From: Reclinomonas americana ATCC 50394
Taxonomy: Eukaryota
Assembly: GCA_048213135.1 (NCBI GenBank)
Contig: PS015042.1
Span: forward strand, 18,786 to 52,938
Length of the DNA: 34,153 nucleotides
Direction: 5' to 3'
The notes below the pieces were generated by a model. The model was not told the DNA's origin, made no database searches, and saw only the letters and a list, made by a program, of their open reading frames with translations. Positions 6,941 through 34,087 of this stretch are shown here, in pieces. A program made the position numbers and the translations under genes. Each line of letters starts with the position of its first letter. The first letter of the stretch is position 1.

Positions 6941-6999
6941 GCTTTTGGCTTGTTTGGTTTGGTGTTCTGATTGATTTGCGTGTGTTTCAGTGTGTTCTT

Positions 7000-8033: not shown

Positions 8034-11000
8034 TCAGAATAAGCGGAAGGCAAAGCTGATGCCCAAAATGATGCCAATGACCACCACAATGGCGATACAC
8101 ACGACGATGGCGATGATGATCATCTTTTTCTGTGGGGGTGGTGAAGGGAACGGGAAGGCGAAGTGAGCATGTATTGATGAGTGCACGCGCCTCGTGCCCC
8201 GTGTCATCTGACAAGACAGTTCGCCCCTTCAAGATGTTACTCTCGCCCTCCTCTATTTACAGTCAACTCTCATCGATGAGAATTGTCTTGCACGCGCCTC
8301 GTGACCCGTACTAACTGACAAGACAGTTCGCCCCTTCAAGATGTTACTCTCGCCCTCCTCTCTTGACAGTTAACCCCCTCCAGTTGGCATCGATGAACAC
8401 TTCCCTCCTCGCCCCTCTATCCCCTGTATCATCCGCCAAGACAATCTCCTCCTCTCATGCGCACTTTTACGCCGCACAACTCGCTCTGTCCTGTACCAAG
8501 TCACTCGCTTTCCACTACTGCACTACCGATATCCAACATCTGCTTACATGGCAATCGACTCGCTTCCGAAACACTACACTGTCTCCCGCACATGATTCCT
8601 CCGCAATCTTCTCCACATCTAAGATGACAAACTACTGTATCTCGCACCCAACAAGTCCTTTCCCGTTCGTCACACAAACGATTTGAGGAAGTACGACAGC
8701 CCCTCTCCAAATTCCTTCTCCCGTTACCGACTCACCTTATTTGCCTTCTTCTTATACTTGGCGGCCGCCACCAACGCCTTGTAGCCTTGTTCCACATAAT
8801 TCGCAGCCTTGGCTATATTATTGGAGATTTTGTTCACCAGTGCTCCTTGCTGTGCGGCGAGATGAAGAGGTGAGGAACACGGAGAGGAGCAAAAAGGGAA
8901 TGCGCTCGCTGTCGCAACTGTGAACACGAGGTTGCTGAAATCCACCATCAGCTCGTGCAGCTCCTCCAGACTCTGCTCGAGTTGCAGAAGGTCGCGATAC
9001 TTTTCCACCGCCTGTCACAGACCCCTTTCGTAAGAGAGAGCTGCGCTGCATCACCACAGGGACACGCGCCGCGGACAAACCAACTCATACGTCGTTCGAA
9101 TCGTGACGGCCGAAGCAGAGTTGGAGAACAGCATGTCGGCAAACAGATTCGATTGTCCGGCGTTCAAGTACGCCTCGACTTGCTCATTCGAGGCCGTCGG
9201 ATCCGCTGCGAGAAGAATGAGTCCGGAGTCGATTGCCTTGCAGGAGAAGCGCGCGGCATGCTCTCACCGATTTCAATCTCGCCCTTCAGCTTCTGTCGGT
9301 ACTGCATCGCAAACACACTCTCCTGCTCCTGGACCTTGCCGGTGAGGTCGATGAGCCTACGAAAGGGGAAATGAGCGGCTGTGACAAAGGCGTGAGCAGT
9401 GTACAAAACCACGCAACGAGCTCGCCAAAGCTTCGAATTGACTCTGCCGCATACGCTGCTCGCCGCTCCCACCCTTGAATTCCCTGTTCTCGGCCTCGAT
9501 TTTCCGCAGACCTGATTGTGCCTGCCGGATGTTTTCGTTGGTCGAATCGAGGAGCTCTTGCAGCTTCTCGTGAAGTCCTGAAATGAGGAAGGGAGTGAGC
9601 GAATAGGGAAAGGCGAAGGGACTGCATTCCCCGTTCTCGCTGCAACCAGCTTCGTCAATAATTTGCGCTCCTCTCTGATCAACAGCTGCGTTCTCTTCTC
9701 CAACAGAAACTCTTTCCTCTCTTCCACACCACTGCACATACACGCACACTCCTCTCTTTTCCCTCGCTCTCTCTCTCTCTCCTCTCTCTNNNNNNNNNNN
9801 NNNNNNNNNTGTTTTCTCTCCCTTTCTTAATCTCGCACTCACTCTCTCACTCACCAACTCTCTCCCTTTCCCTCTCTCTCAAACACACTCTGCGTTTCTC
9901 TTCCACGGCGCATGGTTCCAAGCTCATCACTACTTCTCTCCTTCCCCTTCTCCCACTCTCCCTCCCTCCCTCTCTATCCGCAACTCTTCACATCGGCCAG
10001 TGACGACGCCGCTACTCTCTCAGTGTGAATTGCCCGCATCTTGTCCAGATTGCTCTCCACCATGGCAAAGTTGCCCTTGATCTGGAAACCAGCACATTTT
10101 GAGCCACGCACCACCAACATCCTTCCTCCCTGCGTACCTGGTTGACTTGCCCGAGGAAATGCTGCCGTGCCTCCAGCGTGGCCGGATCGCGCGAGTATGG
10201 CACACCCTTGTTGTCGCTCGTCTCGCCCGGCTGCAGGTGCTCGTCCATCGGTCCCATCTCAATGTCGCTGACCGACACGGGGTCCTCGCTGGTGAACCCG
10301 CGCCGCTTGACCCTTGGATCCACTCCTGCACCGTCATCGGCGGCGGCCGCTGCTGCAGGACTGGCCGCGGGGGCCGCCGATGGTCGTCGCGTGGCGCGCT
10401 TGGCGGTCTCCCAGCTGCGGGGGCACGAAAGGAGTGAGTGCTGAGAGGGGGAGGAGAGAGGGCGTGGTGCACGAAACGAGCCGCCAGCTGCTGCTGCTGG
10501 TCTTGCGCGTGCTCTCGACGAGGCGGCCGAAGATGCCACGGAGGTGTCGTCGGAGGCGGCGGCCGACGCGGTGGATTTGGTGGAGACGACGGTTTCTGTG
10601 CGGGCAAAGCCGGTGCGTCGGCTTGATTTGCCTTCCCAGGGGGTCTGTGGTGGGTGGGGGGAAGGTAGGGAGGAAAGGGAGGGAGGGAGGGCGGGAGGAA
10701 AGAGGAATGGAGGGGTGTGAACGAGACTGGGGAGATGAAGAACGCAGGAAGTGCGCAGAAGGGATGATCATGACTCTACGATGCCAAAGGAAGCGAAGAA
10801 CGAAGAGTGCGCGATCGCAGATCAGGAGCTCTGCCTGAAGCAACATCAGCACTCGTGCTTGTGCCACCAATGGCGGAGGTGTTGCGGCTTCAGGGAAAGG
10901 ATGAGCACTTGCTTGTGTCTGCATAATTCTATGAAGAGGAACAGAAGAGCTGAGGGGGCGAGCGCACGCTGGGAGCTCTGCTTGAAAGACAACATCAGCA

Positions 11001-12375
11001 CGGCAGACGAATCGAAACACAGAGGGCGGCTTCAGGGCAAGGATCAGCACATGCATGACCTCACCAGGCCACAGGAATTGAAGAAGGGCGTGTTAGAGCA
11101 GATGGAGATACCAGCACGTAGTGCGTGCATGGCTCTACGACGCCAGAGGAAACGAAGCATGAAGAGTGGGCGAGTTGAAGGGAAACATCAGCAGTCGTGC
11201 TTGAGACAACTATGACAGCGGTATTGCAGAACGAAGGGCGGCTGCAGAGAAAGATCAGCACTTGCATGACTCCATAATGACAGAGGAACTGAAGAAGGGC
11301 AAGCGCTTGTGCTGCATTCGCCCCCCGAGAGACAAAACGGCGTACAATAACACGAACGAACATCTGCACCTCAAAACAATCGACGGGAAGACGAGGAGCG
11401 AATCACGATCTTCCTTTCGCTCATGACACTCTCTCTCACACACGTACACACTCTCTGGCTGCCTGTCTGTCTCACTGTCTCTCTCTCTCTCTCTCTCATC
11501 TCTTGCCGTCTCACGCTTTCTCTCCNNNNNNNNNNNNNNNNNNNNNNNNNNNNNNNNNNNNNNNNNNNNNNNNNNNNNNNNNNNNNNNNNNNNNNNNNNN
11601 NNNNNNNNNNNNNNNNNCTTCTCCCTTACCCTGCACTGCACTCTCCCTGCACTCACTCATACTCTCTTCCTCACCTTATTCGACGGTGGTGGTGGCGCCA
11701 CATCATCCCCTCCATCATCGTCGTCTCCATCGCTCTCTCGCACAGCACCTCGCCCGCGCTGAATCAAAGAAAGAGAGAAGAAGAGAAGTGTGTGTGAGAG
11801 AGAGGGGGGAGAGAGGAGAAGGGCAGTGAGTGAGAGTGTGAAAGAGACAAGCAAGTGCGTGTGGAGAGAAGAAGGGAAGAGAGGGCGAGAGAGACAGTGA
11901 GAAAGGTGTGACAGACTGAAGAAGGAATTGTCTGTTTGAGAGAGAGAGAGAGAGAGTGAGAATAGAGAGAGTGAGAGTGAGAGTGAGTGTGAATTCAAAT
12001 TGAAAGACTGGTAGAGGAAAAGAGGAGTGTGAGTGTGTGTGAGTGTGTGTGAGAGAGCATGTGAGAGTGCATGAGTGTGTGTGAGTGAGAGAGTGAGTGA
12101 CTGAAAGTGACTGAGAATTCAATTTGAATGACTTCTTGTGAGAGAGAGAGAGAATGAGAGCAGAGTGTGTGAGCGTGAGTGAAGAGAGAGAGAGAGTGAG
12201 TGTGTGAGAGAGAGAAGAGAGAGTGTGTGAAAGAGTGAGTGAGAGAGTGAGTGACTGAAAGTGACTGAGAATTCAATTTGAATGGCTTCTTGTGTGAGAG
12301 AGAATGAGAGCAGAGTGTGTGAGCGTGAGTGAAGAGAGAGAGAGTGTGTGTGTGTGAGTGACGCACGCGCGGCAT
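8034..12375 (-). CDS. Syntaxin (Qa-SNARE, plasma-membrane syntaxin-1/SYP1-like), ~11 exons, long N-terminal extension
   Basis: The spliced product contains a DIEMG motif, Habc helices (FLGQVNQIKGNFAMVESNLDKMR...; LHEKLQELLDSTNENIRQAQSGLRKIE; EQRMRQSQFEAL), the SNARE motif KYRDLLQLEQSLEELHELMVDFSNLVFTQGALVNKISNNIAKAANYVEQG and a C-terminal TM KKMIIIAIVVCIAIVVVIGIILGISFAFRLF* (TGA at 8034-8036). The start is inferred at aaaaATGCCGCGC|gtgcgt (12375). Confidence 0.92.
8180..8420. repeat. ~108-bp tandem duplication in the last syntaxin intron
   Basis: gcacgcgcctcgtg...ctgacaagacagttcgccccttcaagatgttactctcgccctcctct is near-identical at ~8183-8253 and ~8290-8361. Confidence 0.85.
10840..11310. repeat. 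Degenerate tandem repeats in a syntaxin intron
   Basis: aacatcagca.tcgtgcttg (10842, 11185); gatcagcac.tgcatgac (11042, 11253); ggaa.tgaagaagggc (~11073, ~11284). Confidence 0.6.
12083..12345. repeat. ~154-bp tandem duplication in syntaxin intron 1
   Basis: gagtgactgaaagtgactgagaattcaatttgaatg.cttcttgtg...aatgagagcagagtgtgtgagcgtgagtgaagagagag present twice. Confidence 0.85.
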
Positions 12376-12976: not shown

Positions 12977-13223
12977 NNNNNNNNNNNNNNNNNNNNNNNN
13001 NNNNNNNNNNNNNNNNNNNNNNNNNNNNNNNNNNNNNNNNNNNNNNNNNNNNNNNNNNNNNNNNNNNNNNNNNNNNNNNNNNNNNNNNNNNNNNNNNNNN
13101 NNNNNNNNNNNNNNNNNNNNNNNNNNNNNNNNNNNNNNNNNNNNNNNNNNNNNNNNNNNNNNNNNNNNNNNNNNNNNNNNNNNNNNNNNNNNNNNNNNNN
13201 NNNNNNNNNNNNNNNNNNNNNNN

Positions 13224-13280
<57 letters not shown>

Positions 13281-15756
13281 GTACAAGATCTGCTCGCTGT
13301 GCAAGGCAGAGAGGAGAGGCAGCACTACGGGTTAAGCTTGTGTGTCATGATGATTTCCGATGCTGTTGTCGATTCGCATGTGTGTGCGAGTGAGAGGTAT
13401 GATGAGTGCAAGATCCGTTCGCTGTGTAGGGCGAGACGGCAGTGAGAGAGTGAGGTTTGTGAGGCATGATGATTTCGCGTATGTGCATGTGCAGAGAGAC
13501 TGTGAGAGCAAGGAAACGTGAGCCGTGGTTTTGAACGCGGGCAAGGCGAGGCTGAGACTGAACGCTGAGGTTCTCTTGTCATCTCTCATAGAGAGAGAGA
13601 GAGAGAGAGATTGATTGCATGCGTGCGCATGTGTTTGTGAGAGGGACAGAACAATCCAGAAGCAACTGTTAGGAGCTGTGTTTTTGAATGCATGCGTTGA
13701 CAAAAATGCAGACGTTCTCTCGTCCCTGCCCACAGAGAGAACTCTGTCTTACCTCTCTTCTCGTCCTCTTCTCTTCTCTTCTCCATAGTGTGCAGATGAG
13801 ATCTGATCGGCGTGCTTGTTTCCGCACACAAACATGCCTGTCGTTCTTTGACATCCGCAGAGTTATGCAGGCCGCCACTGAATGCGAAGCAGTTGAGATC
13901 ACGATTATGTTTGATTGAGCAAGACGTATAGCAAGCGAGTATTTGTGATCCAGTGTGTGAGAGACATTGTCACCGTTTTGCAGGCAGCATGATGGCTGAG
14001 TGCGAAGTAGTTGAGGCCACGGTTCTGTTTGCATAGCGAGCGAATGTTTGTGCTTGTTCGTGATCTAGTGTGTGAGAGATATCGTCAGAGTTCTGCACGT
14101 CACCCTGACTGCGAAGCAGTTGACGTCAAGGCGCATAGCGAGCGAATGTGTGCGTTTGTTCATAATCCAATGTGTGAGAGACATGTCACAGTTCTGCAGG
14201 CAGCATGATGGCTGAGTGCTAGGCAGTTGAGGCCACGATTCTGTTCGCATAGCGAGCGAATGTGTGTATTTTTTTCGTGATCCAGTGTGTGAAAGACATT
14301 GTCAGAGATATGCTCGTCGCCCTGAATGCGTAGCAGTTGACATTACGAAGTGCAACTGCATCCTTTGTTCCTCTTGTCGGGGAACTGTTGTCAGACCGTG
14401 CTTTCCATCATCCTGCTCACGCCCATTGCTCTTCCGACAGACGATCTCGAGGACATTCAAAAGGAGATCCGCAACATGTGGGAGCTGAAGGCGTCGCCGT
14501 ACGTCACGCAAGTGTACGGATCATACGTGGTCGGCGATCAGTTGTGGTGAGTCTCCCTTCTCTCTCCCCTCTCTCCGTCTCTCCCCTCCCTCACCCCGTC
14601 TCCTACTCCGCAGGATTGTCATGGAGTTCCTGGGCGGCGGCAACATCCAAGAGCTGGTGCGTCTATCCCTTCAGCATTCTCTTACTTCTCCCATCTCACT
14701 CCTTTCCGCATTCGCAGCGGAGAAACTTCAAACTCCCAGAACAAGCCATTGCCATTGTGTTACGCGAAACGTTACTCGGCCTGCAATACCTGCACGCGGA
14801 GAACAAGATTCACCGCGACATCAAAGGTCTCCCTTTTCACCCTCTTCTCTCCTTGGCGGCGCGTGGCACTGACTTTGTGACTCACACAGCCGCCAACATT
14901 TTGCTGTCCGCCGATGCACACGTCAAGCTTGCCGACTTTGGTGGTGCGTATGTGCTGTAGAAGACGGTGTTGGATAAGCGCCTCGTCTCACTTTTCGTCA
15001 TGCAGTGTCGGCCCAACTGTCGGACTCGATCAAGAAGAGGCACACGATGATTGGATCTCCGTTTTGGTGCGTGCATGCACGAGAAGGGGGGGAAAGAGGT
15101 GTGCATCGCAATTCGTGCTCACCTAGAGACACAGGATGGCACCCGAGGTCATCATGGAGACCGGTCACCACGTCAAGGCCGACGTGTGGTCAGTGGGCAT
15201 CACTGCGCTGGAGATGGCCGACGGATTCCCGCCGTACTACAAGGAAAATCCGATAACAGCCATTATGGCCATTCCGACGCGACCTGCACCTGTGCTGCAA
15301 GGTGCGTGGCGGGCGAAGCGTGATGTCTCCATGATTGGTGCTGCTGTTGCTGCTTCATTGCCTGTTATTGTTCTCCTCTCTCCCCGGCCCACTCTCCTCT
15401 CTTTCCTCTCTCGCTCGCTGTCTGTCTGTCTGTCACTCTTTCTCACTCCTTCTCACTCCCCTCACCTCCTCTTCTCTCGTTCTCTCTCTCTTTCTCTCTC
15501 TCTCCTTGTCATTCTCCTCCCCTCTCCTTCTCTCTCCTTGCCATTCTCCTCCCCTCTCCTTCTCCCTGTCTCTCTCCTTCTCTGTGCATGTGTGTCTGGC
15601 TGGCTGGCTGGCTGGCTGTCTCTCTCTTTCGTTCTCTCTGTCTGTCTATTTGTCTGTCTCTCCCTGTCGCTCATTCTCCCGTCCTCTTTTCTCTCTTTCT
15701 CGCTCTCTGTGCCCCTGTGTCTGTGTATGTGTGAGTATTGCGCTTGCGTGTGGGTT

Positions 15757-15820
<64 letters not shown>

Positions 15821-16296
15821 TTCTCTCCCTCTCTCTCCCTCACTCCTCTCCTCCTCCCCCCCCCCCTCCCCTCTCCTTCCCCTTTAATCCCTTTCCCCCC
15901 TTTTTCCCTCTTTCCCCCTCTTTCCGCCCGTGCCCCCTTGCCCCTTTTACCTTCTTCCCCCTTCTTCTCACTCTGCTCACAGGCGACTGGTCACCCGAGT
16001 TCAAGGACTTTGTGCGCGCCTGCCTGCAAAAGAACCCCGACCAGCGACCGTCGGCCGCCGAGCTCCTCGACCATCCGTTTGTGGAAAGGGCTGGCCCCGT
16101 GGAGTCGCTGTACGACCTTGTCGGCGAGCACATGAAGATCACGTTTGTGGGTGGTGAGAGTTCGGGCGAGACGCTGAGGTGAGTGGTGGGAGGAGGGAGG
16201 GAGTGTGAGTATAAGAGCAGGAGAGTGTCTGTGTACTCATTCCACTAATGCAGACGAGGCGAGGTCGCCGTCAGCGACGACGCATGGGACTTTTGA
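12575..16296 (+). CDS. STE20-family (GCK/MST-like) Ser/Thr protein kinase, 10 exons
   Basis: Spliced exons give [124 protein letters not shown] and a tail ending SDDAWDF*. All catalytic motifs are intact and the splice phases are consistent. Confidence 0.95.
12889..13279. repeat. (GT)n/(GA)n microsatellite spanning an assembly gap, in kinase intron 2
   Basis: Long perfect GT runs on both sides of the N-run. Confidence 0.9.
13865..14345. repeat. ~215-230-bp degenerate tandem repeat in kinase intron 2
   Basis: tgcaggcagcatgatggctgagtgc...gttgaggccacg.ttctgtt.gcatagcgagcgaatgt at ~13980 and ~14195; ctga.tgcg.agcagttga at ~13878, 14106 and 14322. Confidence 0.8.
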
Positions 16297-20211: not shown

Positions 20212-20874
20212 CTACTTGCTGCGTGGCTTTTGCGGGGCGCGAGCGGGCGCGCACAATCGTTTGGCCGTGTCCTTCAAATCGACGCCGAGCCAGCGCGCAA
20301 TGACGTGGCGAGCCTCCGCGCAGCGCAGCTCTCCGCCGCATGCGCTTGCTGAGGATGCGGCGGCGGATTCCAAGGCGAGGGTGAGCGGATAGGCNNNNNN
20401 NNNNNNNNNNNNNNTTCGCGCAAGGCGGCGATTAGGTGCTTGGATTGCTCCAGGGTCCACGGATCGCCGACGCGGAAGTCGCCGACGAGCTGGCGACGTG
20501 TGGGCAGTGTGAGGCCGCTCTTCTCGGAGTGCGCGCGCAGGAAGTGCGGGCCGACCATGAGGCGGGTGTCGGGTGGCGCAGGCAGCGAGTTGAACCGCCT
20601 ATTAGCATGTCAGCCTCTGCGCGAAAGAAGAATCTGCCTGCATGTGTGCGTACCTGATCTCGGTGAGCTCGGCGACCTCGGCCGAGTAGTAGCGCTTCAG
20701 TGTCTCCTCGTTCTCGTCTGTGGCCTTTTTCACTTTCTCCAGCACCTCCTCGCGGGCGCTCTCCTGCGTACGGAGCTCCTGCTCGAGGGAGGTGGTGGTG
20801 GTGGTCAGCTGGTCGCTCAGTTGCGCGCAGAGGGCGGCCATGTCGGCCTGCATCTTTTCGAGGGCGTTGCTCAT
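20212..20874 (-). CDS. Hypothetical protein with an N-terminal coiled coil (contains an assembly gap; 3' end uncertain)
   Basis: Exon 1 is MSNALEKMQADMAALCAQLSDQL...EVAELTEIR|gtacgc. Exon 2 is RFNSLPAPPDTRLMVGPHFLRAHSEK...LIAALRE, then the gap, then AYPLTLALES...LKDTAKRL. Codons are GC3-rich. Confidence 0.6.
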
Positions 20875-21371: not shown

Positions 21372-24300
21372 TCATTCCGCATTTTCTAACAATGGCTCAT
21401 GCAGCGTGCTGTGCGACAGCATGCGCGGCGCCATATTCACCATTCCCAATTCTACACCATCGGCCTCCTTTGGCTCGTTCGCCTCTGTGGCAGCTGTTGC
21501 GTTGAGAAAGCAAAAACTCGCCCAAGCGACACAAAAGAACTCTCTCACCTTGCCGCGATTTCTTTCGTCGCAACGACGCACTCTGGCACCACCGCTGCAG
21601 GCGTCTGAGCAACTGAAGCACCTTTGGACCGGCCAGCACCACGGACAGTACGACCAGCAAGACGATGCCGGCGGTGACCTTGAAAGGCGGCGACACTTGC
21701 GAGGCAAAGATGGTGGCGATCACCAGCAGGCCGCCCAAGCCGATCGCCTGTGAATTCACATTATCAGCCGAAGCAGCAGAAGTAGCAAGAGGGAGTGGGA
21801 AAGAAGCAGCTCTCTCATCTCTCCACCACGCTCGCCACTCCCTTCTTTCCTCCACTCTTCTTGCTCTCTGTCGCTCATTTGTTTCTCAACATCGACAACA
21901 CACTTAAACAGTTTTAGTTGTAGAAGGAATGCACACGAGACTTGTTGGCGATCACTGGTTGATGCTCATTGTTGTGTATGGATCAGTGAAGTTTCTATTA
22001 TTATCACTCGCTCTCCCGTAACCGCTCACAATCCACACTCAAACAATGCTTCCATCGCCTGTCACTCCCTTTCACTCTGCATCTTCCATCGCACTCTACA
22101 ACTAATCCGCATTCTCCTCAACTTCTTCCCTCCACCTCCCTTGCTCAGTCTCTCTCTCTCTCTCTCTCTCTCTTCCTGAGACGAGTCGAATAAGCAAGCA
22201 TGGATAAGCTACAATGGCGAATGAGACTTGAAGGGGAAATGCGAGGATGGTGGGGAGAGAAGAAGAAGAAGAAAAAACGGTGGAAGAAGTGAAGACTAGT
22301 GCATGTCAGTGTTAAATGAGCGGCGCCTCACTCATTATCACCCCTCAACCATGCCACATTCTCATTCACCCTTAATGCAACTGCCTTCATCCCTCCACTC
22401 TCCTTGCTCTCTGTCGTACATTCATTCACTCGCTCACTCGTAAACGCTCACAATCCACACTCAAACAACGACTCTCACTCCCTCTAACTCTGTATCCGCC
22501 ATCGCAACCTGCAACTAATCCACATTTTCCTCAACTTGCACTCCCGTCGCCACTCCGTTCTTCCCTCCCTGCACTCTCTGCCGCTCATTTTCTCCCTTCC
22601 CCCTGCCCTTCCCCTTCTCCTACCCCCTTTTGCCCTTCCCCCCTTTGCCCTTCCCCCTTGACCCCTTCCCCTCTTCATCCCCTTTCCCCTCCACCTGCTC
22701 ACCTCCATCACATTATCCCGAGCAACTCGGTACGGCCGCAGCGCCAGATGCACCGCCAAAAACGACGACAACACGAGCCACAACGCCAGCGGCAACGCCG
22801 ACCCTTGATTCGCACCCGCCATTGGGAAGAACACCACCAACAGGGCCAGGCGGCGAGCCAGCTGGAACGCTGCATTGTTTCTATTTTAAGCAGTGCGAAG
22901 AAAACAGAAACGCACACACAGAGAGAGGACTCTCACCCTGGAACCAGACGTATTGCGGCTTGAAGTGGTGGTAGAGAATGCCGAAGCGACGATGCACCTG
23001 CGAAGCAGCAGCCAGTGAACAACAAACAATCGCGACCGGACAACAGCTGTTCCACACACACACGCACCGTCGGCACCTCCAGCTGCTCGCGTTTTCGCAA
23101 CCTCACCATCGCCATTGTGAGCAGCACCGGAATAATGACCAGCACGCAAAGGAGCACCGCAAAGAGCGGCAACATGCGGCTCCAACTGGGACGATTGCTC
23201 GCCAATCAGCACCATGAATCCCTCCCACACACAAAGAGACACAGAAAAGGTACGCAACACTCCCTCAAAGCACATGATACTGGGTGAAAATAGCACCACG
23301 TGTGACTCGCCGACTGAGGTACATGAAAAGTACGTGCCCACCGCCTCCGCCAGTCCCTGGTACAGCGCAATGGCCAGCACGAGAGTGGACTGGAGGTACT
23401 TTTCGGCGTGCGACATGCGATCGAACCAGCGCAACAGACGCGTCCAGCGTGTCACCGGCGCACCGCCGTCGGGTCTGCGCGCCACATACGGGCGCACCAA
23501 CAAGCGCACCAACACGAGGTGGAGTAGGAACGTAGTCCACAGTACTCCCACCGACACCAGCGGCGACAGGATGCGCGCCACCAAGTCGCCAAAGGCGTCC
23601 AGGAAAATGGGGCATTGCGACGACGAGGACGGTGGCATGAACAAACTGACCAGGCGACCGAACGTGAGCAGCTGCACATTCGGGTAGAACAGCAGTGCCG
23701 TGGTCTGCACAAAGAAGATGACCATTTCCATGGTCGCTGCGCGCACAGATATCAGAGGAAAACAAGAGAAGAAAGTCGTGCCATACGCAACACTCACCAT
23801 CCTTGCCGCCCTGCGCAGAAATGTGCGTGAACAGCACCAGTCCCCAGATCTTACCAATGGCCTCCAGCCGAGCTACCGACGACGTCCCCTGGCAGGCAAT
23901 GCAGCTGCCTTGCCATTGCGAATAGTTATCCTGCAGCGAAACACTGTATTAGAAACCATAATATTGCACACCACGTGCCTGCGAGATGACTGCCAGGCAA
24001 GCTGCACAAGAACGATGCGTGAAAGAGGAAAAGAGAGAACGACGCATGAGATCGGCCAGTCCTCGAAAGAGAGACATTTCTGAGCAAGATGGAGAAAGTC
24101 GCTGCACGAGATCAGCCTGTGCTCGAAGAGAGATGACTAATCGCTTCTCCTTCCCTCTCGGTACGTGATCAACTTCTTATGAATATAGACGAGGTCAACG
24201 CCCTCTTGATCTCCCCCTTCCCTTCCCATCCCACCCTCGCTCTCTTCTCTTCCCCCAACCCTTGACCCGTCACACGCAGTTTTCATCGAGTAGACAAAAG

Positions 24301-27300
24301 TGGGGAAGAAACATATCATGTCTTCCTCTTCCCTCTCCTTATGTGTTCTACTTCTCTTGCCGCTGCGTGAATAACGTGGTCCTTTCTCGTTCTCTACCTA
24401 TCCATTTCTTCTCTTCCCTGTCCTCCTCCCTTCCCCTACCTTCCCTTCGCCACCCATTAACTCTCCCTATGTTACCGGTTGAAAGAGTGGGGGAGTTCTA
24501 GAAGCGCGAACACCATGGCCACGGCCAAGCGACCCCTTGACCTCCCTTCTCCCGTCCAATTCGTTTCTTCCTTCCTCGCTCTCTCTTGCGCAACCCTTCT
24601 TTCGATGTCTTTCCTTTTTGCTTCCTCCTTCCCCTCCCCTTCTTTTCTCTTTTTCTTTCTCACCTCTCGCTCCCTCCCTATCTCCCTTCCTTTCCTTCCT
24701 CTCCCTCCCTTTCTCTCACACTCCCCTTCCCTTTAACCCCCTCCCCTTTTCTCCCCCTTCCCCTTCATCCCCCCCTCCCCCTCTCCTTCCCCCTACCCAC
24801 CTCACACGCTCCACACAACGGCGAATCGGCGAGTCGATGACTCTGCGGATTGCAATAGTTCGCCCCCGGCACCATCTCCGTGGACGACGACGTATCGCAA
24901 AAGTCGTACGGACACGCGTAGGTAATCACGAGACCGCTGGCCGACGGCACCACGGTGGATCCCGAAGATCCACGAGCCAACACCGGCACAATCGTCATGT
25001 TGGCGTTGACGGGGAAGGCCCAGCTTTGCGACTCGACAAAAACGCCCTGACCGCCATTGGAGGTGCTCTGGCACACGGCGCCGTTGGGGCACGAGACGCA
25101 CGATTGGTTGAAAGCCTGGCCCGGCAACGAGTACGTCCCCGGTCCGCACACTTGACAGCCGACGCCGGGCGTGTAGGCCAGGCCAGCGGGACAGGCGGTC
25201 ACATCGAGCGTGAGCTGCGGCGCCGGTCCGGCAAAACTGCCTCCGTCGCTGGTGCCCACCGACAGCGTCATGTCGGTGGCCCTTGTCGCCAGTGTCGGGA
25301 CAGACCGAGTGCCGCTGGTGGTGGTGGACGGCTGGCCTTGCACAGTTACCGACAGTTGGAATGTGGCAGTGCCACCGACTGTGGCTTGTGCTTGCGATCG
25401 AGTCTGCACGACAGACACTACGTGTGAGAACTGCCGTCACAACTCAGAGCAAGACAATGCGACGACGACGACGACGCACTCCGGCACTGCACCCGGGGCA
25501 ATTGAGCAGGAGCAGCGTCGCGTCCAGTGTGGTCATCAGGTGACCAAACACGTCGGTGGCATTGACCAGCACCGTCCGTGGCGTCTTTGGCGACGGGTAC
25601 GACGGACCGGCAACCACCTCAAGAGCCGCGGAATAGAGCGCTGCGACACAGCAACCAAATTAGATGCACCGCGAGAACAAAAATCAATTAAAAACGGTGC
25701 GCAACTGCTGGCCACATCACTGGCCTCCAAATTCGTGGCGCTATTGCCATACACCGACACTCCATTCTGCGCCGCCCACTGCGTCCATCCGCCACTGGCT
25801 GCAAAGGTGGCTGCCACCGTCGACAGCTGCTGTGGATTGCCGCCGCCGTCCCAAAAAATGCCACCGCCAGCACCCTCACCAAGGACATGGGCCGCCCCTG
25901 TGCGCGCCAGCGCCTGATTGCCAAACACGGCCACGTTGAGCAGGGTGACGCCCACTGGTACGACCGCCGCGGTGGGGGTCGAGTTGGCGGTCACAGTCAT
26001 GTTCACCGCGAGGCCACCACCACGACTGCCCGACACGTTCTCCGCAAACGTGCAATCGATCAGCTGCGTCAGCGTGCTGTTGACAATCGATGCGCCACCT
26101 CCGTCGCCAAAGAGTGCCACGTTGCCGAGCAACTGACAGCTCTCGCACGACAGCGATCCGGAACCCGCAGCAAAGACACCGCCGCCGGCAGCCAGCGCGC
26201 GATTCTTCACCATCTGTGAGTTTTGCATCGCCACCGCCGCCGTGTTGGCCATTTGCAAACCGCCGCCGTACTGCGCCGAGTTTGACACAATGTTGACTCC
26301 ATTGGCGGAGAGCTGTGCCGTTTCGCTCACCGATAGCGCGCCACCACCTCCAGCCAACACCACATTGTTCGCGAGGGTGGTGAGGTAGAGGTTGACGGTG
26401 GAGTTGCTGGCGGCGTACACAGCGCCGCCCAGCAGCACTGCACTGCCGCCCGACAGCGTGCTTCCGGTGTCGGACCACGTGACCAAGCCACGCGCACTGA
26501 CGTGACCGCCAGTCGTCGTGGCGGTATTGTTCAGCAGACGTGACACGGTCGATGTCACTTGCGCGAGTTGGGCCAGGTAGACCGCACCACCGGCCAGCGC
26601 CGCGTTATTGCCAGCCACTGTACAGTTAATAACGCGCATGGTGACGACGCCATCAGCGTACAGGCCACCACCATCGGCTGCGGTGGCATTGTTGCCAGTG
26701 ACGGTGCAATTCGTCAGCACATGACTGCTCTCCTCGCCACCGTACAATCCACTGCCAAACGATGCCGTGTTGCCGACCATGGACGCGTTGGTCCACTCGG
26801 AGGCCGACTGCGAGTTGGAAAACAAGCAGCCTCCGAAACGCCCCGCCTGATTGCTCTGCATGCTTGATCCGCGTTCCACGGACAGCACAGCAGTGTCGGT
26901 GAGGTGAGCGCCGCCACCGTTACGCACAGCGGTATTGCCGCTGACGCTGGAGCCGTCTGTCACCACCAGGCTCGCATCGTCAGCTCGCAGTGAGATGCCG
27001 CCGCCGTACGCCGCCTTGTTGCCCGACACCACTGTGGCGATAATGGCGGCCAGCGAAGCCTCCTCGTTCATGACAACACCACCGCCGTAGCCACCGAGCG
27101 CTGTGTTGCCGGTGATTGCCGATGCACGCACCGCAGCATCGCTGCCGACGAATGCCACTCCACCGCCGGCGAATTCAGCCTGGTTGTTCGACACTGTGGA
27201 CAACGACAGACGGGACTGGGTGCCGATAAGCACCCCGCCGCCAGTCATCAGAGCACCGGTGACAGAGTTGCCCGAAATATCACATTGAGTGGCGCTGCTG

Positions 27301-30300
27301 GCATTATCCAACAACATGGCACCGCCGCCAGAAGCACGACCAGCAATGACTTTGGTGGTCGTGGAGCCGGCCGAGTTGCCGCTGAACGAAGACATTGAGA
27401 CGGTGGCGTTGTTCAGCATCAGCAATGCGCCGCCGCCGCAAAAGCTGCCAGACAAGTACGACTGGCTTCCGGAGCCAGCATTGAGAGCACGATTGTTGAT
27501 GAAACGACTGCTTGTCACCGACGTTGGGTTGATAAGCAGCAGCGCGCCGCCGCCATTGTGAGCGCTGCCTTGACCACTCAGTGTGTTGTTCACGCCGCCA
27601 GAACCGTCGCCGTTCGACAGATTGCTGTCAAACGTGCAGTTGGTGATGGCATATGGAGCCTGCCAAGACGACACAGCACATGAAAGGTGAGGTAAATCGC
27701 GAGTGACTCGGGATTCACAAGCATCGGTGACATACTTGCAAAGACGGGGCAGAGGCAACAATCAACGCGGCACCGCCGCCAGCCAAACCACCAAACGACG
27801 CGCCCATCTGTGTGGAGCTGCCACCCGCACCGTTGAATGAGGAAGTGTTGGCGGTGAAGGTGGAATTGCTTGTGCTCTGCGCGTGCGTACACATTCGCTC
27901 AGCAAAACCCGCAAAGAAAAGTGAGGCTCGCCTCAGCACGAGGAGATGAGACGCACAAACATGGAGCCTGCTTGCGCAGTGAAAATCAAAAGAGCTCCAC
28001 CGCCCGAGTACGTTGTGGAACTGAGCGCGGCGAGTAGCGTATTGCTGCCGCCGTGACCTGCAGAACAGCACGCCGGTGAGGCGCCATGTTGGAAGAACAG
28101 ATGCGAATAAACACCCACCATTTCGCGCAGCCGTGTTGCTGACAAAGCGAGTTGAATTCACCTGCCACACACGCACACACGTTACTAAACATGCACTGCA
28201 TCAGTTGATAGCTGGACGGGGGGAGGAACCTGCAGCACACTGGAGGCTAATTGCACCAGCAGAGCGCCGCCACCGGCCACACTTCCAGATGAATCGGATC
28301 GCCCATACTGGGTAGTGCCGCCGGCAGTGTTTCCCACTGCGCTGTTTTGCAGAAATTGCACCTGCTGCACACTCACCTGCGCAGAAAACGAACCATGGTT
28401 AGTAGAGGCACAAGGGACAACGAATGAATGAGTGACTGACCACAGAGGAACCAGTGGCTCGGAGGAGCAGCGCACCGCCGCCGTTGATGATTCCTGTAGA
28501 CACAGCAGATGAACCGCTGCCACCTACGCCATTATCGCTCGCCGTATTGTTGGTGAATGTGCAATTTGCAATCGTCGCAAGCTGCAGTAGCATGTGTGAT
28601 GAACGACGCACAGCAGCGGGGCACAAAGCTGCGAGACGGCATTATATACCATCGAGGCAGAGTAATACGCCGCTAAAACGCCGCCGCCATTGACAGAGCT
28701 CGAACTGTCGGTCGATCCAGCGGCGGAGACTGTGGAAGAGAGTGAGTGAATCAAGTGCGTGTAGAGTGATGACAATTGATTGAGAAAGACAGAGCATGCA
28801 ACAGTAGTTGAGCGGTGCACACCGAGAAGGATGACAGGTCTGGAACAACAACGAGAGAGAAAATGAGCAATGTAAAGTGCGCGATACCTCCGCCAGCTCC
28901 ATTGCCCTGAGCCGCATTGCCGACAAAAGTACTGTTCACAATCATCTGCGACACGCCAGCTCAATCACGCGCACGTACATCACGGAGAGATCTGCAGCAG
29001 TGCAGTCGTGACACTTACGTGACTGCCGCCGCCTCCAAAGCCAACGATGATGGCTCCTCCACCATTGTTCCCACTCGTGCAGTCGGCGCTCACAATACCT
29101 ACACTTTGCAGGTCAATGCCCTGACAGCCAAAGCATATAGAAAATATAAAAAAGACTCTCTTCGCACCTTGAGCGGTGCCTCCCGAGCCGTTACCAATGG
29201 CCGTGTTGTTCACAAATGTGCTGGAAGCGATCGTCTGCGGCGATCAACAGTGTGAGCAACATCGTGTCCCGCTGTATACACACACACAGACCGTCGTGAG
29301 AGAGTTACCTGACTGCCGGGAACGTTGTTGAAAAACGTCAGCAACGCTCCACCACCGTTCTGATGACCTCCACTATTGGCATCGCCACCGATATCTGTTG
29401 CAATATCATGGGTTAGATGATCGAGCACAGCAAATCTGGAAATACAGCCATGTAAAGCAGACCGCTGTCAGCGAAACCGCCATTTCCATTGCCGGCGGCG
29501 GTGTTGTTGATGAAGGTTGACCCAGCAATGAGCTGGGAAGGACGAACGTGAGCAGCCCAAGACGCGTTCGTTATGAATGCATCTGTGTGCACAAACCTGA
29601 CTGCCTCCGCCGTAGAAAAATGCACTTAGCACACCTCCGCCATTCAAGTAGGCCAGCGACGAAGCCGTGCTGCTGCCGTTGCCTTCACAACGCGCGGTAT
29701 GAGAAGCGTGGGCAAAGGACGATCACGCACACAAAGACAGCTCCCCCGCTCACCTGACACCAAAGCAGTTCCTCCCGCACCGTTCGACCGAGCGGCATTG
29801 CCAATAAACGAGCACGAGTTGAACGTCTTCTCATCATGTAAGCGGAATAGAACGCAGCAGGGATCGGGAGAAAGAGCCTTCACTTACCTGCGTGCCGAAT
29901 GCCGAGAAAATGACTGCAACCGCACCACCACCGTTGCCTGAGCCAGATGCGTCGGCCTGGTTGCCACCACGTCCACTGGCCGTCACTGCTCTCCATGTCA
30001 GCTCTCGACAAGGAGTAGCGACGAACTCACTGCCCATCACGTTGACTGACCTGTACGAGGTTGCGCGGTACCACCACTGGCGTTGCCACTGGCTTCATTG
30101 CCGTAAAATGTACTGCTTGAAAACGTCTGCACAGAGAGTATGTGAGGCGTGCGGACTTCACTTCGACCGACGAGTGTGTGCGCACGAACCTGATATCCAC
30201 CACCGGTGAAGACAGAGAACAGGGCACCACCTCCATTATTGGAGGTGGAACTCAGTGCGAAGGCGCCAACTTGAGAGCCCTCTGAGATGGAATCGACATG

Positions 30301-30779
30301 AGCTTGACAACATGTCAACACGCACACTTGCAAAGTTGCACGCAACCAGTGGGCAACGTGGCTATTCCGCCGACGCCGTTCTGGTTCGATCGGTTGCTCA
30401 CGAACGAGCAACCGGTAACCATCTGCGTTCATGGCGTTTCAATTAATGCACACTTGACACCCCGACAACAGTTCCACTTTCAACAAATCAACGCCTCACT
30501 TGAACTCGCACCCAACAACCAAACAGAACAGATATCTGAGAAGAAGCACGGTACCTGTGTTGATGTTCCCAAGAAAATTGACCACATAGCACCACCGCCG
30601 TTGCCTGTGGAGCCAACACTGTTGGCTGTTGCACATCCGTATACGTCGAGCATCCCGGCACCTGCGCGCATGACGCAACAACTCAGCGTACAGTCACATG
30701 ACTCGCCTGGCTGGCGCGCCTCACCTGCGTTGCTGTTTCCAATGGCAGAGTTGTTGAAGAATGTGCTGCCCGTCAACAT

Positions 30780-30845
<66 letters not shown>

Positions 30846-31445
30846 CGTCGTCGTCGACACACGACGACGAGACGACGTAGTGGACGGACGACGACGAAGT
30901 ACGTACGTACGTTAACGAACGGACGAACCGTACGTCGTCGTCGTGTCGACGAACGAACGTAACTAACCGAACCACTACGTCGCCCGACCCGCCGTACCGT
31001 ACGTCCGGCCCGNNNNNNNNNNNNNNNNNNNNNNNNNNNNNNNNNNNNNNNNNNNNNNNNNNNNNNNNNNNNNNNNNNNNNNNNNNNNNNNNNNNNNNNN
31101 NNNNNNNNNNNNNNNNNNNNNNNNNNNNNNNNNNNNNNNNNNNNNNNNNNNNNNNNNNNNNNNNNNNNNNNNNNNNNNNNNNNNNNNNNNNNNNNNNNNN
31201 NNNNNNNNNNNNNNNNNNNNNNNNNNNNNNNNNNNNNNNNNNNNNNNNNNNNNNNNNNNNNNNNNNNNNNNNNNNNNNNNNNNNNNNNNNNNNNNNNNNN
31301 NNNNNNNNNNNNNNNNNNNNNNNNNNNNNNNNNNNNNNNNNNTCGGTCGTCGCGCGCCGTCCACCTACGCGTCGTCGTGTTCGTTACTAGTACGACGAGT
31401 AGTTGTTAGTAAGTAAGTAGTCGTCGTCCGTCCGTACCGACACTA

Positions 31446-31512
<67 letters not shown>

Positions 31513-32551
31513 CGCGTTGGCACACACGGCAGAGACCATGTGGGACAGCAGATGCATTCGAAGACGAACCTGCGTCGTGTTGCAGGCAAATGAAACCCAC
31601 ATTGCACCGCCGCCATTGCCGCCGCCAAGACTGGAAGTGTCCGACGCGCCGAGACCTGCCGACGACTTGCTCCCTCAGCACGGAGGGATGAATAAAGCAA
31701 ACATGAGAATACAACTTGCTGACCTCCGCTTCCGTTGGTATTGGCTGTGTTGTCGACAAACGAGCAGTTGCTCACGGTCTACCAGCTTCAACCGTCAGCG
31801 ACGAGGGTCGTGATCAGATGCACAGCGCACGAATGACAAGACCTGATAGCCGGCGATGGAGTAGAACCGCACCCAGACGGCACCACCTCCGCCGTAAGTC
31901 CCCGAGCTCGTGGACACGACGTTACTGAATCCATTTCCTGCATCGCGAAGAAATATGAATCGAATTTGTTAACACTGCAAGCCGCACAGAATGAATGTAC
32001 AGTACCGCCACCAAGGTTCAAATTTGCCGAGTTTCCATTAAAAGTGGAGTCCGTAAGAGTCTGCACACTGCCGAGTAAACACTCCCGTGAAATCATAAAT
32101 ATGGCACGCGCAAGTTCGCACACCTGATTTCCAGAGCCACTGAAAAACGTCCACAGCGCACCACCGCCAACGTTTCCACCGCTGTTGCTGGACTCGCTAA
32201 AGGCAGAACCTACCCAGGATAACATGCGCACTTAGCGGTTGCTCCAGCAGGAAGACGATAGACTAAGAGCTCACCCCCCGCATTGCCTCCAAAGCTATTG
32301 CCATTGGCAGCGTTGTTGGTGAATGTGGAGTTGTGAATTGTCTGCAATCCAGTATGAGGTCGGATACGCTGTGGATAGCATCTGCACGTACATTACTCAC
32401 CTGCACACCCGTGCAACCAGAATCGAAGCATACTGAGACCACACCAGGCTGGGCTTGGCAGAATTTGGTCCACAGAGCGCCGCCGCCCAAGAAAGACGCA
32501 GAACTCCGAGCAACGTTGAAACCACCGCCTGCAGAGAGAAACACAAGATAT

Positions 32552-32588
<37 letters not shown>

Positions 32589-34087
32589 CAGTGAAGGGAA
32601 GGCAGCATACGGCGCAGTTTCGACGACACATCAGAGAGACAGATAATACAGCGAATAATGAACGAGAGGCTGGCAAACAAAGAAGAAGATGTGTGCGGAC
32701 CCAGAAGAACTGCATACAAGTAGAAAATCACTCCACACTCACCGCCGGCGTACTGCGTCATGCCATTGTTACTCGCCGAGTTGGCGACAAATGTCGAGTT
32801 GGAAAGCGTCTGCACCACCGCACGTTTCAATAATCTCCACAATAGTAGCTCTGGTAGATCTGACGGCAATCAAACCTGATTTCCTCCGCCCTCCAGCCAA
32901 AACCACACCGCACCTCCTCCACACGCCGTTGAGGAAGTGTCCGCGGTACTCACCGAGTTCTCTGCTCAAAGAACGTCAGAGGGGGGCTCATGCAAGTCGA
33001 CAGCCAAGTAAGTCACCAGACGTCGTGGCAAACCCGCCAACGCAGTTGGAGTTTGCCATGTTGTTTGCGAATGTGCTCCTTGTTAGCGTCTGCGACGACA
33101 TGGGTCGGTTACATGGACACTGAAACAATCCTTGGTGTATACAAAGACGCACTTGAAAACCAACTCCGCCTATAACACCAAACACGGCACCACCTCCATT
33201 GTTGCTGGCCGTGGTCGTTGCGTTCACGGCAAGTGCACCTGTGACAGAGAAATGTGAGTGACCTCACCGCCGCGCAGAAAGCCCAACGACACCGCTCCAG
33301 ACCAGAGGCGATGTTGGCAGCGCCATTGCCACTCGCGGAGTTGCCACTTAATATGCAGTCATCGATCGACTGGCAAAAAAACGCACAAAGTAAGTTACCT
33401 ATCTATTCAGCGACTGCGTTTATCGACACTCACCTGCCCTCCCGCAGCTCCAGCATAGAACCACAGTGCGCCACCACCACTGTACCCGCCTGAACTGGCA
33501 GCAGCCGTCAGTCCACCGCCTACATACACCATTCACCGTTGAGCACACAGCGCGGGCATGCGACAAAGCTTGAGTTGACCCTACCGCCACTGGCATTGAC
33601 GTTCGCAGTGTTCCCGGTAAACAGCGTGCGGGTAACAGTCTGCAGCGAGAGTAGCGCAATGAGACAACAAAGCTGAGGCATGGACTGCTGCATATACTAC
33701 TAGCATCACCTGGTACGCGTTGACAACAGAATACATTAACACAGCGCCACCGCCGTTAAACAGGCCAGCGCTGCTTGCGTCACCCATGAGGGAACCCGAG
33801 GGAGCTGCTCAACAGTCAGTGACGAGAACAGAGGAGAGAGATGACGAAACGACGTGGAATACGCACCGTTAGCCACGCCGCCAATTGAGTTGCTGGAAGC
33901 GGCATTGCTGGTAAATGCGCTATTTGTAATAGTCTGTATTCGTAGTGAATCAGAGCGAGTCCTCGGCCGAGAAGAATATGTATCCGAAACATACAAACCT
34001 GGTAACCGGTACCAGCCCCGAATACCGTCCACACCGCGCCACCGCCAGCATTCATTGCCGTGCTGACTGCCGTAGTTGTGCCATAAC
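21372..34087 (-). CDS. Very large Pmp-like (FxxN / GGA[ILV]) beta-helix repeat transmembrane protein with a Cys-rich juxtamembrane region and a multi-pass (~7 TM) C-terminus; 5' end lies outside the window
   Basis: >35 small repeat exons (34087-27735); one ~2-kb exon (27659-~25710) with many N.A..GG[GA] repeats; then ACPAG...CQVCGPGTYSL...SCVSCPNGAVC and CPYDFC...C...SPLCGACE...SCIAC. TM segments follow (IFFVQT, SQCP, YFSC..V...SPSIMC, RFGILYHHFKPQYVWFQ, RPYRVARDNVME, final TM pair). The tail ends HEPLLENAE* at 21372. Splice phases are consistent throughout. Confidence 0.9.
21835..22560. repeat. ~420-bp-spaced degenerate direct repeat in a late intron of the large gene
   Basis: cgta.acgctcacaatccacactcaaacaa (~22017 and ~22439) and ccatcgca...caactaatcc.catt.tcctcaactt (~22085 and ~22499). 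Confidence 0.75.
27735..34087 (-). repeat. Tandem array of ~19-20 exon cassettes, each encoding one long Pmp-like repeat
   Basis: Period is ~280-300 bp. Exon A is T/M-x-x-(N/S)-(S/C)-T-F-x-x-N-x-A-x-x-N-x-x-G-G and exon B is ...N-G-G-G-A-hydrophobic strand...Q. Confidence 0.85.
30783..31508. other. (CA)n microsatellites and low-quality sequence flanking a 330-N assembly gap, within an intron
   Basis: CA runs at 30783-30843 and 31448-31508; cgtcgtcg/acgtacgt noise next to the N-run. Confidence 0.8.

Follow-up and report, generated by a model that had tools for sequence, protein, structure and literature searches.

The stretch of DNA analysed here, referred to as the window, comprises 34,153 nucleotides (nt) from Reclinomonas americana ATCC 50394 (contig PS015042.1 of assembly GCA_048213135.1, positions 18,786 to 52,938 of the forward strand). 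Its minus strand carries one very large eukaryotic gene, of which at least 46 predicted exons with 2,314 codons lie inside the window; the 5′ end of the gene is located past the window edge. An array of short repeat exons at 27736-34087 forms the intron-rich 5′ and central part of this gene. The exon that follows (27659-25721) carries on the repeat of the array, intronless, over 1,939 nt, and nine further exons (X1-X9) lead from this last repeat exon to a TGA stop codon at 21374-21372. The segment they encode comprises a spacer, a Cys-rich stalk in which CxxC-type motifs occur in pairs (X2 and X3), and seven or more hydrophobic segments. Judged from its sequence, the predicted product is a surface protein that would consist of a beta-helix rod of Pmp-type FxxN/GGGA coils, the Cys-rich stalk and a C-terminal multi-pass anchor.

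The exon model was built by hand from the minus-strand letters and then checked by script, and its splice sites are predictions. A unit of the array is encoded either by an A exon and a B exon or by one fused A+B exon. The basis of the array rows in the following list is the scripted check of splice sites and phases, and these exons also match a hidden Markov model (HMM) of the A part or the B part, or of both in the fused exons.

33999-34087, minus strand: exon B0, 89 nt, phase 1->0; CAG/GT donor, AG acceptor; B-part HMM 24.3 bits; its A partner lies past the window edge
33867-33933, minus strand: exon A1, 67 nt, phase 0->1; HMM 24.0 bits
33710-33804, minus strand: exon B1, 95 nt, phase 1->0; GAGCAG tandem acceptor, alternative start 3 nt upstream
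33585-33639, minus strand: exon A2, 55 nt, phase 0->1
33434-33519, minus strand: exon B2, 86 nt, phase 1->0
33303-33369, minus strand: exon A3, 67 nt, phase 0->1
33153-33238, minus strand: exon B3, 86 nt, phase 1->0; terminal CAA
33017-33089, minus strand: exon A4, 73 nt, phase 0->1
32876-32961, minus strand: exon B4, 86 nt, phase 1->0
32743-32809, minus strand: exon A5, 67 nt, phase 0->1; followed by a 214-nt intron with (CT)n
32401-32528, minus strand: exon B5, 128 nt, phase 1->0; 14-residue Cys-containing extension past the GGGA strand
32275-32341, minus strand: exon A6, 67 nt, phase 0->1
32124-32209, minus strand: exon B6, 86 nt, phase 1->0
32006-32060, minus strand: exon A7, 55 nt, phase 0->1
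31843-31937, minus strand: exon B7, 95 nt, phase 1->0
31724-31778, minus strand: exon A8, 55 nt, phase 0->1
31570-31655, minus strand: exon B8, 86 nt, phase 1->0
30780-31569, minus strand: intron between B8 and A9, 790 nt as assembled; (GT)n tracts and 330 N (31013-31342)
30725-30779, minus strand: exon A9, 55 nt, phase 0->1
30555-30661, minus strand: exon B9, 107 nt, phase 1->0
30347-30422, minus strand: exon A10, 76 nt, phase 0->1; donor GTTGCG
30190-30281, minus strand: exon B10, 92 nt, phase 1->0
30051-30126, minus strand: exon A11, 76 nt, phase 0->1; end uncertain by whole codons (upstream in-frame G/GT donors)
29888-29985, minus strand: exon B11, 98 nt, phase 1->0
29754-29826, minus strand: exon A12, 73 nt, phase 0->1
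29597-29682, minus strand: exon B12, 86 nt, phase 1->0
29463-29532, minus strand: exon A13, 70 nt, phase 0->1; 55 nt with the donor at 29478
29309-29394, minus strand: exon B13, 86 nt, phase 1->0
29168-29234, minus strand: exon A14, 67 nt, phase 0->1
29019-29098, minus strand: exon B14, 80 nt, phase 1->0; terminal CAC
28888-28945, minus strand: exon A15, 58 nt, phase 0->1
28650-28729, minus strand: exon B15, 80 nt, phase 1->0; terminal ATG
28441-28581, minus strand: fused A+B exon F1, 141 nt, phase 0->0; HMM 32.8 bits (A part) and 24.6 bits (B part)
28230-28376, minus strand: fused A+B exon F2, 147 nt, phase 0->0
28119-28161, minus strand: exon A16, 43 nt, phase 0->1; HMM 14.4 bits
27957-28057, minus strand: exon B16, 101 nt, phase 1->0; terminal TTT
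27736-27876, minus strand: fused A+B exon F3, 141 nt, phase 0->0; terminal CAA
25721-27659, minus strand: long intronless exon, 1939 nt, phase 0->1; three long units, then beta-helix coils of ~26 residues
25480-25640, minus strand: exon X1, 161 nt; spacer past the beta-helix
24801-25403, minus strand: exon X2, 603 nt; Cys-rich stalk with CxxC...C motifs; weak Pfam matches to DUF families only
23855-23930, minus strand: exon X3, 76 nt; final Cys-rich piece
23259-23736, minus strand: exon X4, 478 nt; start of the predicted multi-pass membrane domain
23068-23185, minus strand: exon X5, 118 nt; most hydrophobic segment
22937-22997, minus strand: exon X6, 61 nt
22703-22869, minus strand: exon X7, 167 nt; more hydrophobic segments
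21549-21747, minus strand: exon X8, 199 nt; two hydrophobic segments and a basic tail
21372-21493, minus strand: exon X9, 122 nt; C-terminus with TGA stop

The array (minus strand, 27736-34087) begins with a leading B exon; 15 A/B pairs come next, then the fused exons F1 and F2, a sixteenth A/B pair and the fused exon F3. A preliminary description of this DNA had already proposed such an arrangement, with phase-0 borders between the units, a phase-1 split within them, a leading B exon, 16 pairs and three fused exons, and the scripted exon model bears it out. The two exons it gave as examples (A 33933-33867 with 67 nt and B 34087-33999 with 89 nt) are exact, and its list of A-exon starts is right except for two positions, each shifted by a single base (the correct values are 33639 instead of 33638 and 32060 instead of 32059). 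The number of 15 pairs in the first run holds as well, but these pairs are not consecutive in the assembly, as a gap of 330 N (31013-31342) sits in the intron between B8 and A9 and splits the run. This gap may conceal more repeat units. On both sides of the N run there are (GT)n tracts and ACG/TCG-rich low-complexity sequence (30844-31012 and 31343-31450); the ACG/TCG-rich sequence differs from the rest of the locus and may represent low-quality assembly.

From 34087 to the end of the long intronless exon the predicted model comprises 37 exons, with an AG at 37/37 acceptors and a GT at 36/36 donors, and their joined frame runs over 1714 codons with zero stops. Likewise, the 3′ half of the gene (last repeat exon plus X1-X9) yields 1308 codons whose sole stop is the terminal one, all borders being GT-AG. 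Without exception, the 16 A exons (43-76 nt) are of phase 0->1, each with a terminal G, and the 17 B exons (80-128 nt, with 86 nt as the modal length in 7/17) are of phase 1->0; the three fused exons measure 141, 147 and 141 nt and are all 0->0. The encoded units are 46-65 residues long and usually end in Gln, as had been stated before: a Gln codon terminates 16 of the 20 B or fused exons (14 CAG, 2 CAA). Introns without N (n = 35) have a median length of 65 nt, and 32/35 fall in the range of 55-80 nt. Since alternative in-frame splice sites are common (another GT within 30 nt at 31/36 introns, another AG at 15/36), the predicted borders may move by whole codons, with the phases unaffected.

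A strong strand bias is apparent from the motif counts: GGxA-type motifs occur 30 times in the minus frames versus twice in the plus frames, and FxxN-type motifs 16 versus 5 times. When the units are aligned, the FxxN and GGxA-type motifs line up in 19/19 units. The regularity of the array is far above chance, with the caveat that the units are mutual duplicates and not independent events. The array translation (1007 residues) is composed of 21% Gly, 14% Ser, 13% Ala, 10% Asn and 10% Thr, and it contains 22 N-x-S/T sequons. This composition, together with the sequons, points to a domain that is probably extracellular and glycosylated.

As to the repeat family, a 707-residue translation of the last repeat exon matched zero Pfam families at E ≤ 0.1 and zero NCBIfam families. 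Pieces of 166-180 residues reached scores below the Pfam cut-offs, namely 22.3 bits (cut-off 25.9) for PF13229 and 10.7-14.9 bits (cut-off 20.6) for PF02415. A search for relatives returned 687 proteins at E ≤ 1e-3; of the 120 that were listed, the majority have PF13229, PF02415 or both. Among 1.84 billion representatives searched there were 21,152 matches at E ≤ 1e-3 (best 9.7e-82), the best 150 of which share 26-41% identity with the query. The top relatives are mostly long uninterrupted open reading frames on metagenome contigs; two of the top 10 clusters looked up are named, one as a beta-helix protein of a bacterial metagenome-assembled genome and one as 'hypothetical protein'. A metagenome scan yielded a single distant locus (L001, 29% identity), and no relative was found when solved structures were searched by sequence.

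The AlphaFold2 model of the last repeat exon (646 residues, 27-row alignment) is a regular solenoid with three short strands per coil of ~26 residues. Its predicted local distance difference test (pLDDT) value is 80 and its predicted template modelling score 0.85, with a pLDDT ≥ 90 at 357/646 residues. The top Foldseek matches of the model are all beta-helix proteins (Ag43, pertactin, PL6 alginate lyases and phage tailspikes), the best E being only 1.1e-3. Thus, PF13229 and PF02415 in the relatives, the solenoid model, the Foldseek matches and the at least seven hydrophobic segments all agree with the earlier proposal of a Pmp-like beta-helix ectodomain in a multi-pass membrane protein. On the basis of these predictions, assignment of the array product to a Pmp-like right-handed beta-helix ectodomain is supported.

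For the membrane domain a Pfam search found no family, and word-based searches with the membrane exon at 'longer' and 'near' lengths found no relatives. In the ESM Atlas, the nearest neighbours of this exon are unnamed eukaryotic clusters at 0.96, most often from haptophytes, and a TRP cluster lies at 0.81; these are to be taken as leads only. Two long introns in this part of the gene (minus strand, 23931-24800 with 870 nt and 21748-22702 with 955 nt) are purine-rich on the coding strand, and the latter harbours a 46-nt direct repeat of 85% identity (21834-21879 / 22377-22422).

In the AlphaFold model the three long units of the last repeat exon have exactly three strands each, and low-confidence excursions (residues 16-39, 61-78 and 100-107) separate the FxxN strand from the GGGA strand. 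According to this model, each coil of the array has a long Gly/Ser/Asn/Thr-rich excursion between strands 2 and 3, a putative loop. The unit alignment places the phase-1 intron within this excursion and the phase-0 intron between coils; therefore, strands 1-2 and the initial half of the loop would be encoded by the A exon, and what remains of the loop, together with the GGGA strand, by the B exon. In 15/16 A exons the Phe of FxxN lies 6 residues from the exon start; in 9/17 B exons 13 residues separate the phase-1 intron from GGG (range 11-20), and in 11/17 B exons 11 residues follow GGGx up to the exon end. From the Asn of FxxN to the end of the A exon there are 5-15 residues, and it is mainly in their 3′ portion that the A exons vary in length. 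The FxxN-GGGA spacing does not change systematically with array position (Spearman rho = -0.02), and a unit with such a long loop was found in 0/256 fetched proteins. By eye, Gln terminates one of the first four intronless units of the last repeat exon (27100-27659), as compared to 16/20 intron-bounded units.

The sequences of the array are strongly diverged. An all-against-all comparison of the 35 introns gave only matches of 9-11 nt (E ≥ 0.024). The same type of comparison revealed DNA similarity between exons in only 5 pairs, where it covers 14-22 nt surrounding the GGGA motif. Within the array, the strongest family of DNA repeats has 5 copies of 60-72% identity. No near-identical cassettes were found within the window by DNA comparison and repeat scan. 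On the amino acid level, A parts share a mean identity of 0.44 and B parts one of 0.41 (120 pairs each). HMMs of the two parts recovered 19/19 A-type and 20/20 B-type exon pieces among the 1,039 six-frame pieces of the whole window; nothing else scored above 4.7 bits (E ≥ 2), i.e. dead, antisense or spare cassettes were not found in any of the six frames. Furthermore, GGGAxW accounts for 8/10 motifs in the 5′ half of the array and for 0/10 in the 3′ half (Fisher p = 0.0007), and the similarity of units declines weakly with their distance in the array (r = 0.17-0.18, p = 0.05-0.07). Because of this positional block structure, local tandem duplication fits the data, and free mixing is hard to reconcile with them. 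The diversity system based on exon shuffling or combinatorial splicing that the preliminary description envisaged finds no support in the sequence; the dissimilar introns, the lack of near-identical, dead or antisense cassettes in the window, exon lengths that are not fixed and the positional blocks speak against it. Mobile introns (introners) were considered as well and rejected, the introns having no shared similarity.

In view of these results, we consider it likely that the array arose by ancient tandem duplication of one two-exon unit and belongs to an ordinary, constitutively spliced repeat gene. One ancestral two-exon unit would have undergone many tandem duplications long ago, and the copies would have inherited both intron positions and their phases and diverged thereafter. 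The phases remain locked because any change would disrupt the reading frame. The B-side spacings from intron to GGG and from GGGx to the exon end, the spacing from A-exon start to Phe and the restriction of most length variation to the 3′ portion of the A exons make the intron position look inherited. In the three fused units, the 3′-most of the array, and in the 1.9-kb last repeat exon the internal intron may have been lost later or may never have been present. The Gln at the unit end and, at the internal intron, the Gly-type codon would largely reflect the splice consensus (CAG/GT and G/GT, respectively); the Gln seems to be linked to CAG/GT rather than to the fold. With introns this short (~65 nt), splice sites would pair across the intron and splicing would be constitutive, and the outcome would be one long rod, with adhesion or sensing at the cell surface as its likely role.

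Several observations weigh against this explanation. The internal intron is spread over alignment columns (after NG, after GG, or 4-7 residues later), which could also come from independent gain or intron sliding. The similarities of A parts and B parts are uncorrelated (Mantel r = 0.04-0.05, p = 0.34-0.40), as shuffling would predict. This comparison corresponds to the check for incongruent A and B trees suggested in the preliminary description, performed here as a correlation of similarities within the array, and it turned out to be uninformative: controls within exons (exon halves; odd/even columns) are likewise uncorrelated (r -0.16 to 0.13, p ≥ 0.20), and because the same-exon controls behave equally and the sequences are saturated, the congruence test is without discriminating power. 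Constitutive splicing is proposed from the size of the introns. Some isoform variation is possible since five of the 35 introns have a length divisible by three and no in-frame stop (minus strand: B3 to A4, 33152-33090; B6 to A7, 32123-32061; A9 to B9, 30724-30662; B10 to A11, 30189-30127; A14 to B14, 29167-29099), so that their retention would insert 21-23 residues with the frame kept, and 4/36 introns have tandem acceptors of the NAGNAG type (GAGCAG or GAGAAG; minus strand: B1, 33804; B4, 32961; B11, 29985; A12, 29826), which allow a difference of one codon. Moreover, the assembly gap and the absent 5′ end conceal part of the array. With regard to the fold, AlphaFold2 has been reported, in the accessible part of one study, to over-predict beta-solenoids for repeat sequences (bioRxiv 10.1101/2024.10.30.621056). 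The solenoid obtained for the last repeat exon is consistent with the family of its sequence relatives.

The scattered column of the internal intron raises the question of parallel gain, in which an intronless repeat would have expanded and introns would later have been inserted independently at proto-splice sites (CAG/R between coils, G/GT in the loop). Such a history, which we consider unlikely, would agree with the repeat being intronless over 1.9 kb, with three units being without an internal intron and with the terminal Gln of 16/20 units where introns exist versus 1/4 of the first intronless units (by eye). However, a 3′-biased loss of introns would account just as well for their absence from the 3′ part, and some 35 independent insertions would have been needed to yield a perfectly regular pattern. 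The 13 residues between intron and GGG in 9/17 B exons are what one inherited ancestral intron predicts, and the introns share no sequence that would hint at a mobile introner. A non-functional locus, either as unexpressed or decaying repeats or as a frame kept open artefactually by the choice of splice sites, could be suspected from the frequent alternative in-frame GT or AG sites and from the fact that no relative exceeds 41% identity among the best 150 matches from 1.84 billion representatives. It is nevertheless very unlikely, given 3,021 stop-free codons in 46 exons with canonical borders throughout, the conserved motif spacing and the coherent order of rod, stalk, membrane anchor and stop codon.

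Alternatively, the array might serve as a diversity system in which regulated unit skipping, non-adjacent A-B joining or genomic cassette reshuffling would generate many ectodomains differing in length and loops. Every A/B junction is in frame, given the uniform phases of the A exons (0->1) and of the B exons (1->0), and the earlier remark that any A can be joined to any downstream B is arithmetically correct. In addition, the A/B joins would fall in a low-confidence loop of the solenoid, where a chimeric coil should be tolerated, variation in sequence and length is concentrated in that loop, and the similarities of A parts do not correlate with those of B parts. The exon arrays of brown-algal ROCO leucine-rich repeat (LRR) genes, with shuffling as well as alternative splicing, provide a precedent, according to the available portions of two reports (PMC3341825, PMC11378527). 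On the other hand, the introns lack mutual similarity and hence candidate docking or selector elements, near-identical as well as inactivated or antisense cassettes are absent from the window, exon lengths are non-uniform, a positional gradient is kept along the array, and the absent A/B correlation is equalled by the within-exon controls. Very short introns also favour splice-site pairing across the intron, and exon skipping is uncommon there. Altogether, we regard a diversity system as very unlikely. The same low likelihood applies to its splicing variant, in which regulated skipping or non-adjacent joining in the tolerant loops of a modular array would give rods of varied length with varied sets of loops, and, jointly with it, to the additional variants that would arise if the five open introns were retained and other in-frame Gly-codon donors were used. 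The DNA gives no hint of the units being used combinatorially; such use, if it occurred, would provide a protist with a repertoire of surface receptors that is generated by splicing and built on a beta-helix scaffold.

Among known systems, the chlamydial Pmps (PF02415) are related in their motif pattern. An FxxN plus GGA motif pair has been reported for each of their beta-helix coils (PMC11166332, PMC10715098; accessible parts), and the same alternation of FxxN and GGA-type motifs is found in this gene, whose sequence relatives carry PF02415 and PF13229. In contrast to the Pmps, this gene is eukaryotic and split by introns, the anchor would be a Cys-rich stalk with a multi-pass helical domain instead of an autotransporter beta-barrel, and the array coils have an extra putative loop of 20-30 residues. 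Because it lacks the autotransporter barrel and is eukaryotic with introns, the gene would encode a Pmp-type beta-helix protein resembling adhesins or receptors, yet not a chlamydial Pmp. The Pmp-like surface proteins of Trichomonas (PMC6701047) are a comparable eukaryotic system. A literature search on eukaryotic Pmp-like multi-pass proteins and their exon structure found only chlamydial and trichomonad work, which is not proof of absence. No description of such an exon structure in a Pmp-like eukaryotic gene was found by this search; the type of gene, with one structural unit per exon set, is already known.

Comparable eukaryotic proteins exist. P0001 (EukProt, 2,596 residues) has a long beta-helix repeat region that is followed by Cys-rich motifs and several membrane segments, and P0080 of Mesostigma, with Pectate_lyase_5 and TRP (PF06011), is a beta-helix membrane protein as well. 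The beta-helix regions of such proteins are homologous to this gene (E = 1e-51 and 3.2e-52) with 26-29% identity, whereas P0001 has plain coils of ~27 residues. Judged by sequence comparison, homology to P0001-type proteins is demonstrable in the beta-helix part only: BLASTP of the stalk and membrane parts versus P0001 and P0080 gave no match at E < 0.1, and the lowest value (0.13) concerned the Cys-rich stalk, not the membrane domain.

Tandem related exons of compatible phases are also known from Dscam-type clusters. In Dscam, the mutually exclusive exons provide alternative versions of one protein segment and depend on conserved pairing elements in the introns. In the present array, by contrast, the units would follow one another as coils of a single rod, and no sequence is shared by the introns. 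The ROCO (LRR) and NB-ARC-TPR arrays of Ectocarpus resemble the present array in that a solenoid repeat of a putative receptor is encoded by tandem, phase-compatible exons. For the ROCO genes, shuffling has been argued from fixed 72-nt exons, from inactivated or antisense exon copies in introns and from pseudogenes (PMC3341825, available text), and alternative splicing has been reported for the arrays (PMC11378527, available text). As far as these texts go, each Ectocarpus repeat corresponds to one exon of fixed length (72 nt) and the introns hold inactivated or antisense repeat exons, whereas two exons of variable length make up a unit in the present array and the window contains no spare or near-identical cassettes. 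LRR-kinase genes with modular exons are described as being without shuffling in the accessible part of the former report (PMC3341825). Modular exons alone are therefore not evidence of shuffling.

It is important to note that the structure of the gene mirrors that of the predicted protein, with one intron between the beta-helix coils and one within a putative variable surface loop, and that this two-intron pattern would have been preserved through more than 16 old duplications. The locus should be useful for the annotation of giant repeat genes in intron-rich protists and for studying how the splice consensus affects protein sequence, as with Gln and Gly at the borders.

Outside the gene, open reading frame pieces with protein-kinase-like motifs (APE and DVWS-type, by eye) lie on the plus strand at ~14334-16182; they are interrupted by introns rich in CT/CTGT repeats and look like a neighbouring kinase gene. 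The window has five N runs (9790-9809, 11526-11617, 12977-13223, 20395-20414 and 31013-31342) and is very rich in microsatellites and low-complexity sequence, i.e. (GT)n, (GA)n, (GAGT)n and C/T-rich runs. G/T-rich tandem repeats of ~130 nt are present at 6171-6961 in 4-6 copies of 65-90% identity, and two pairs of nearby direct repeats occur at 8182-8374 (86 nt, 91% identity) and 13968-14274 (91 nt, 88% identity).

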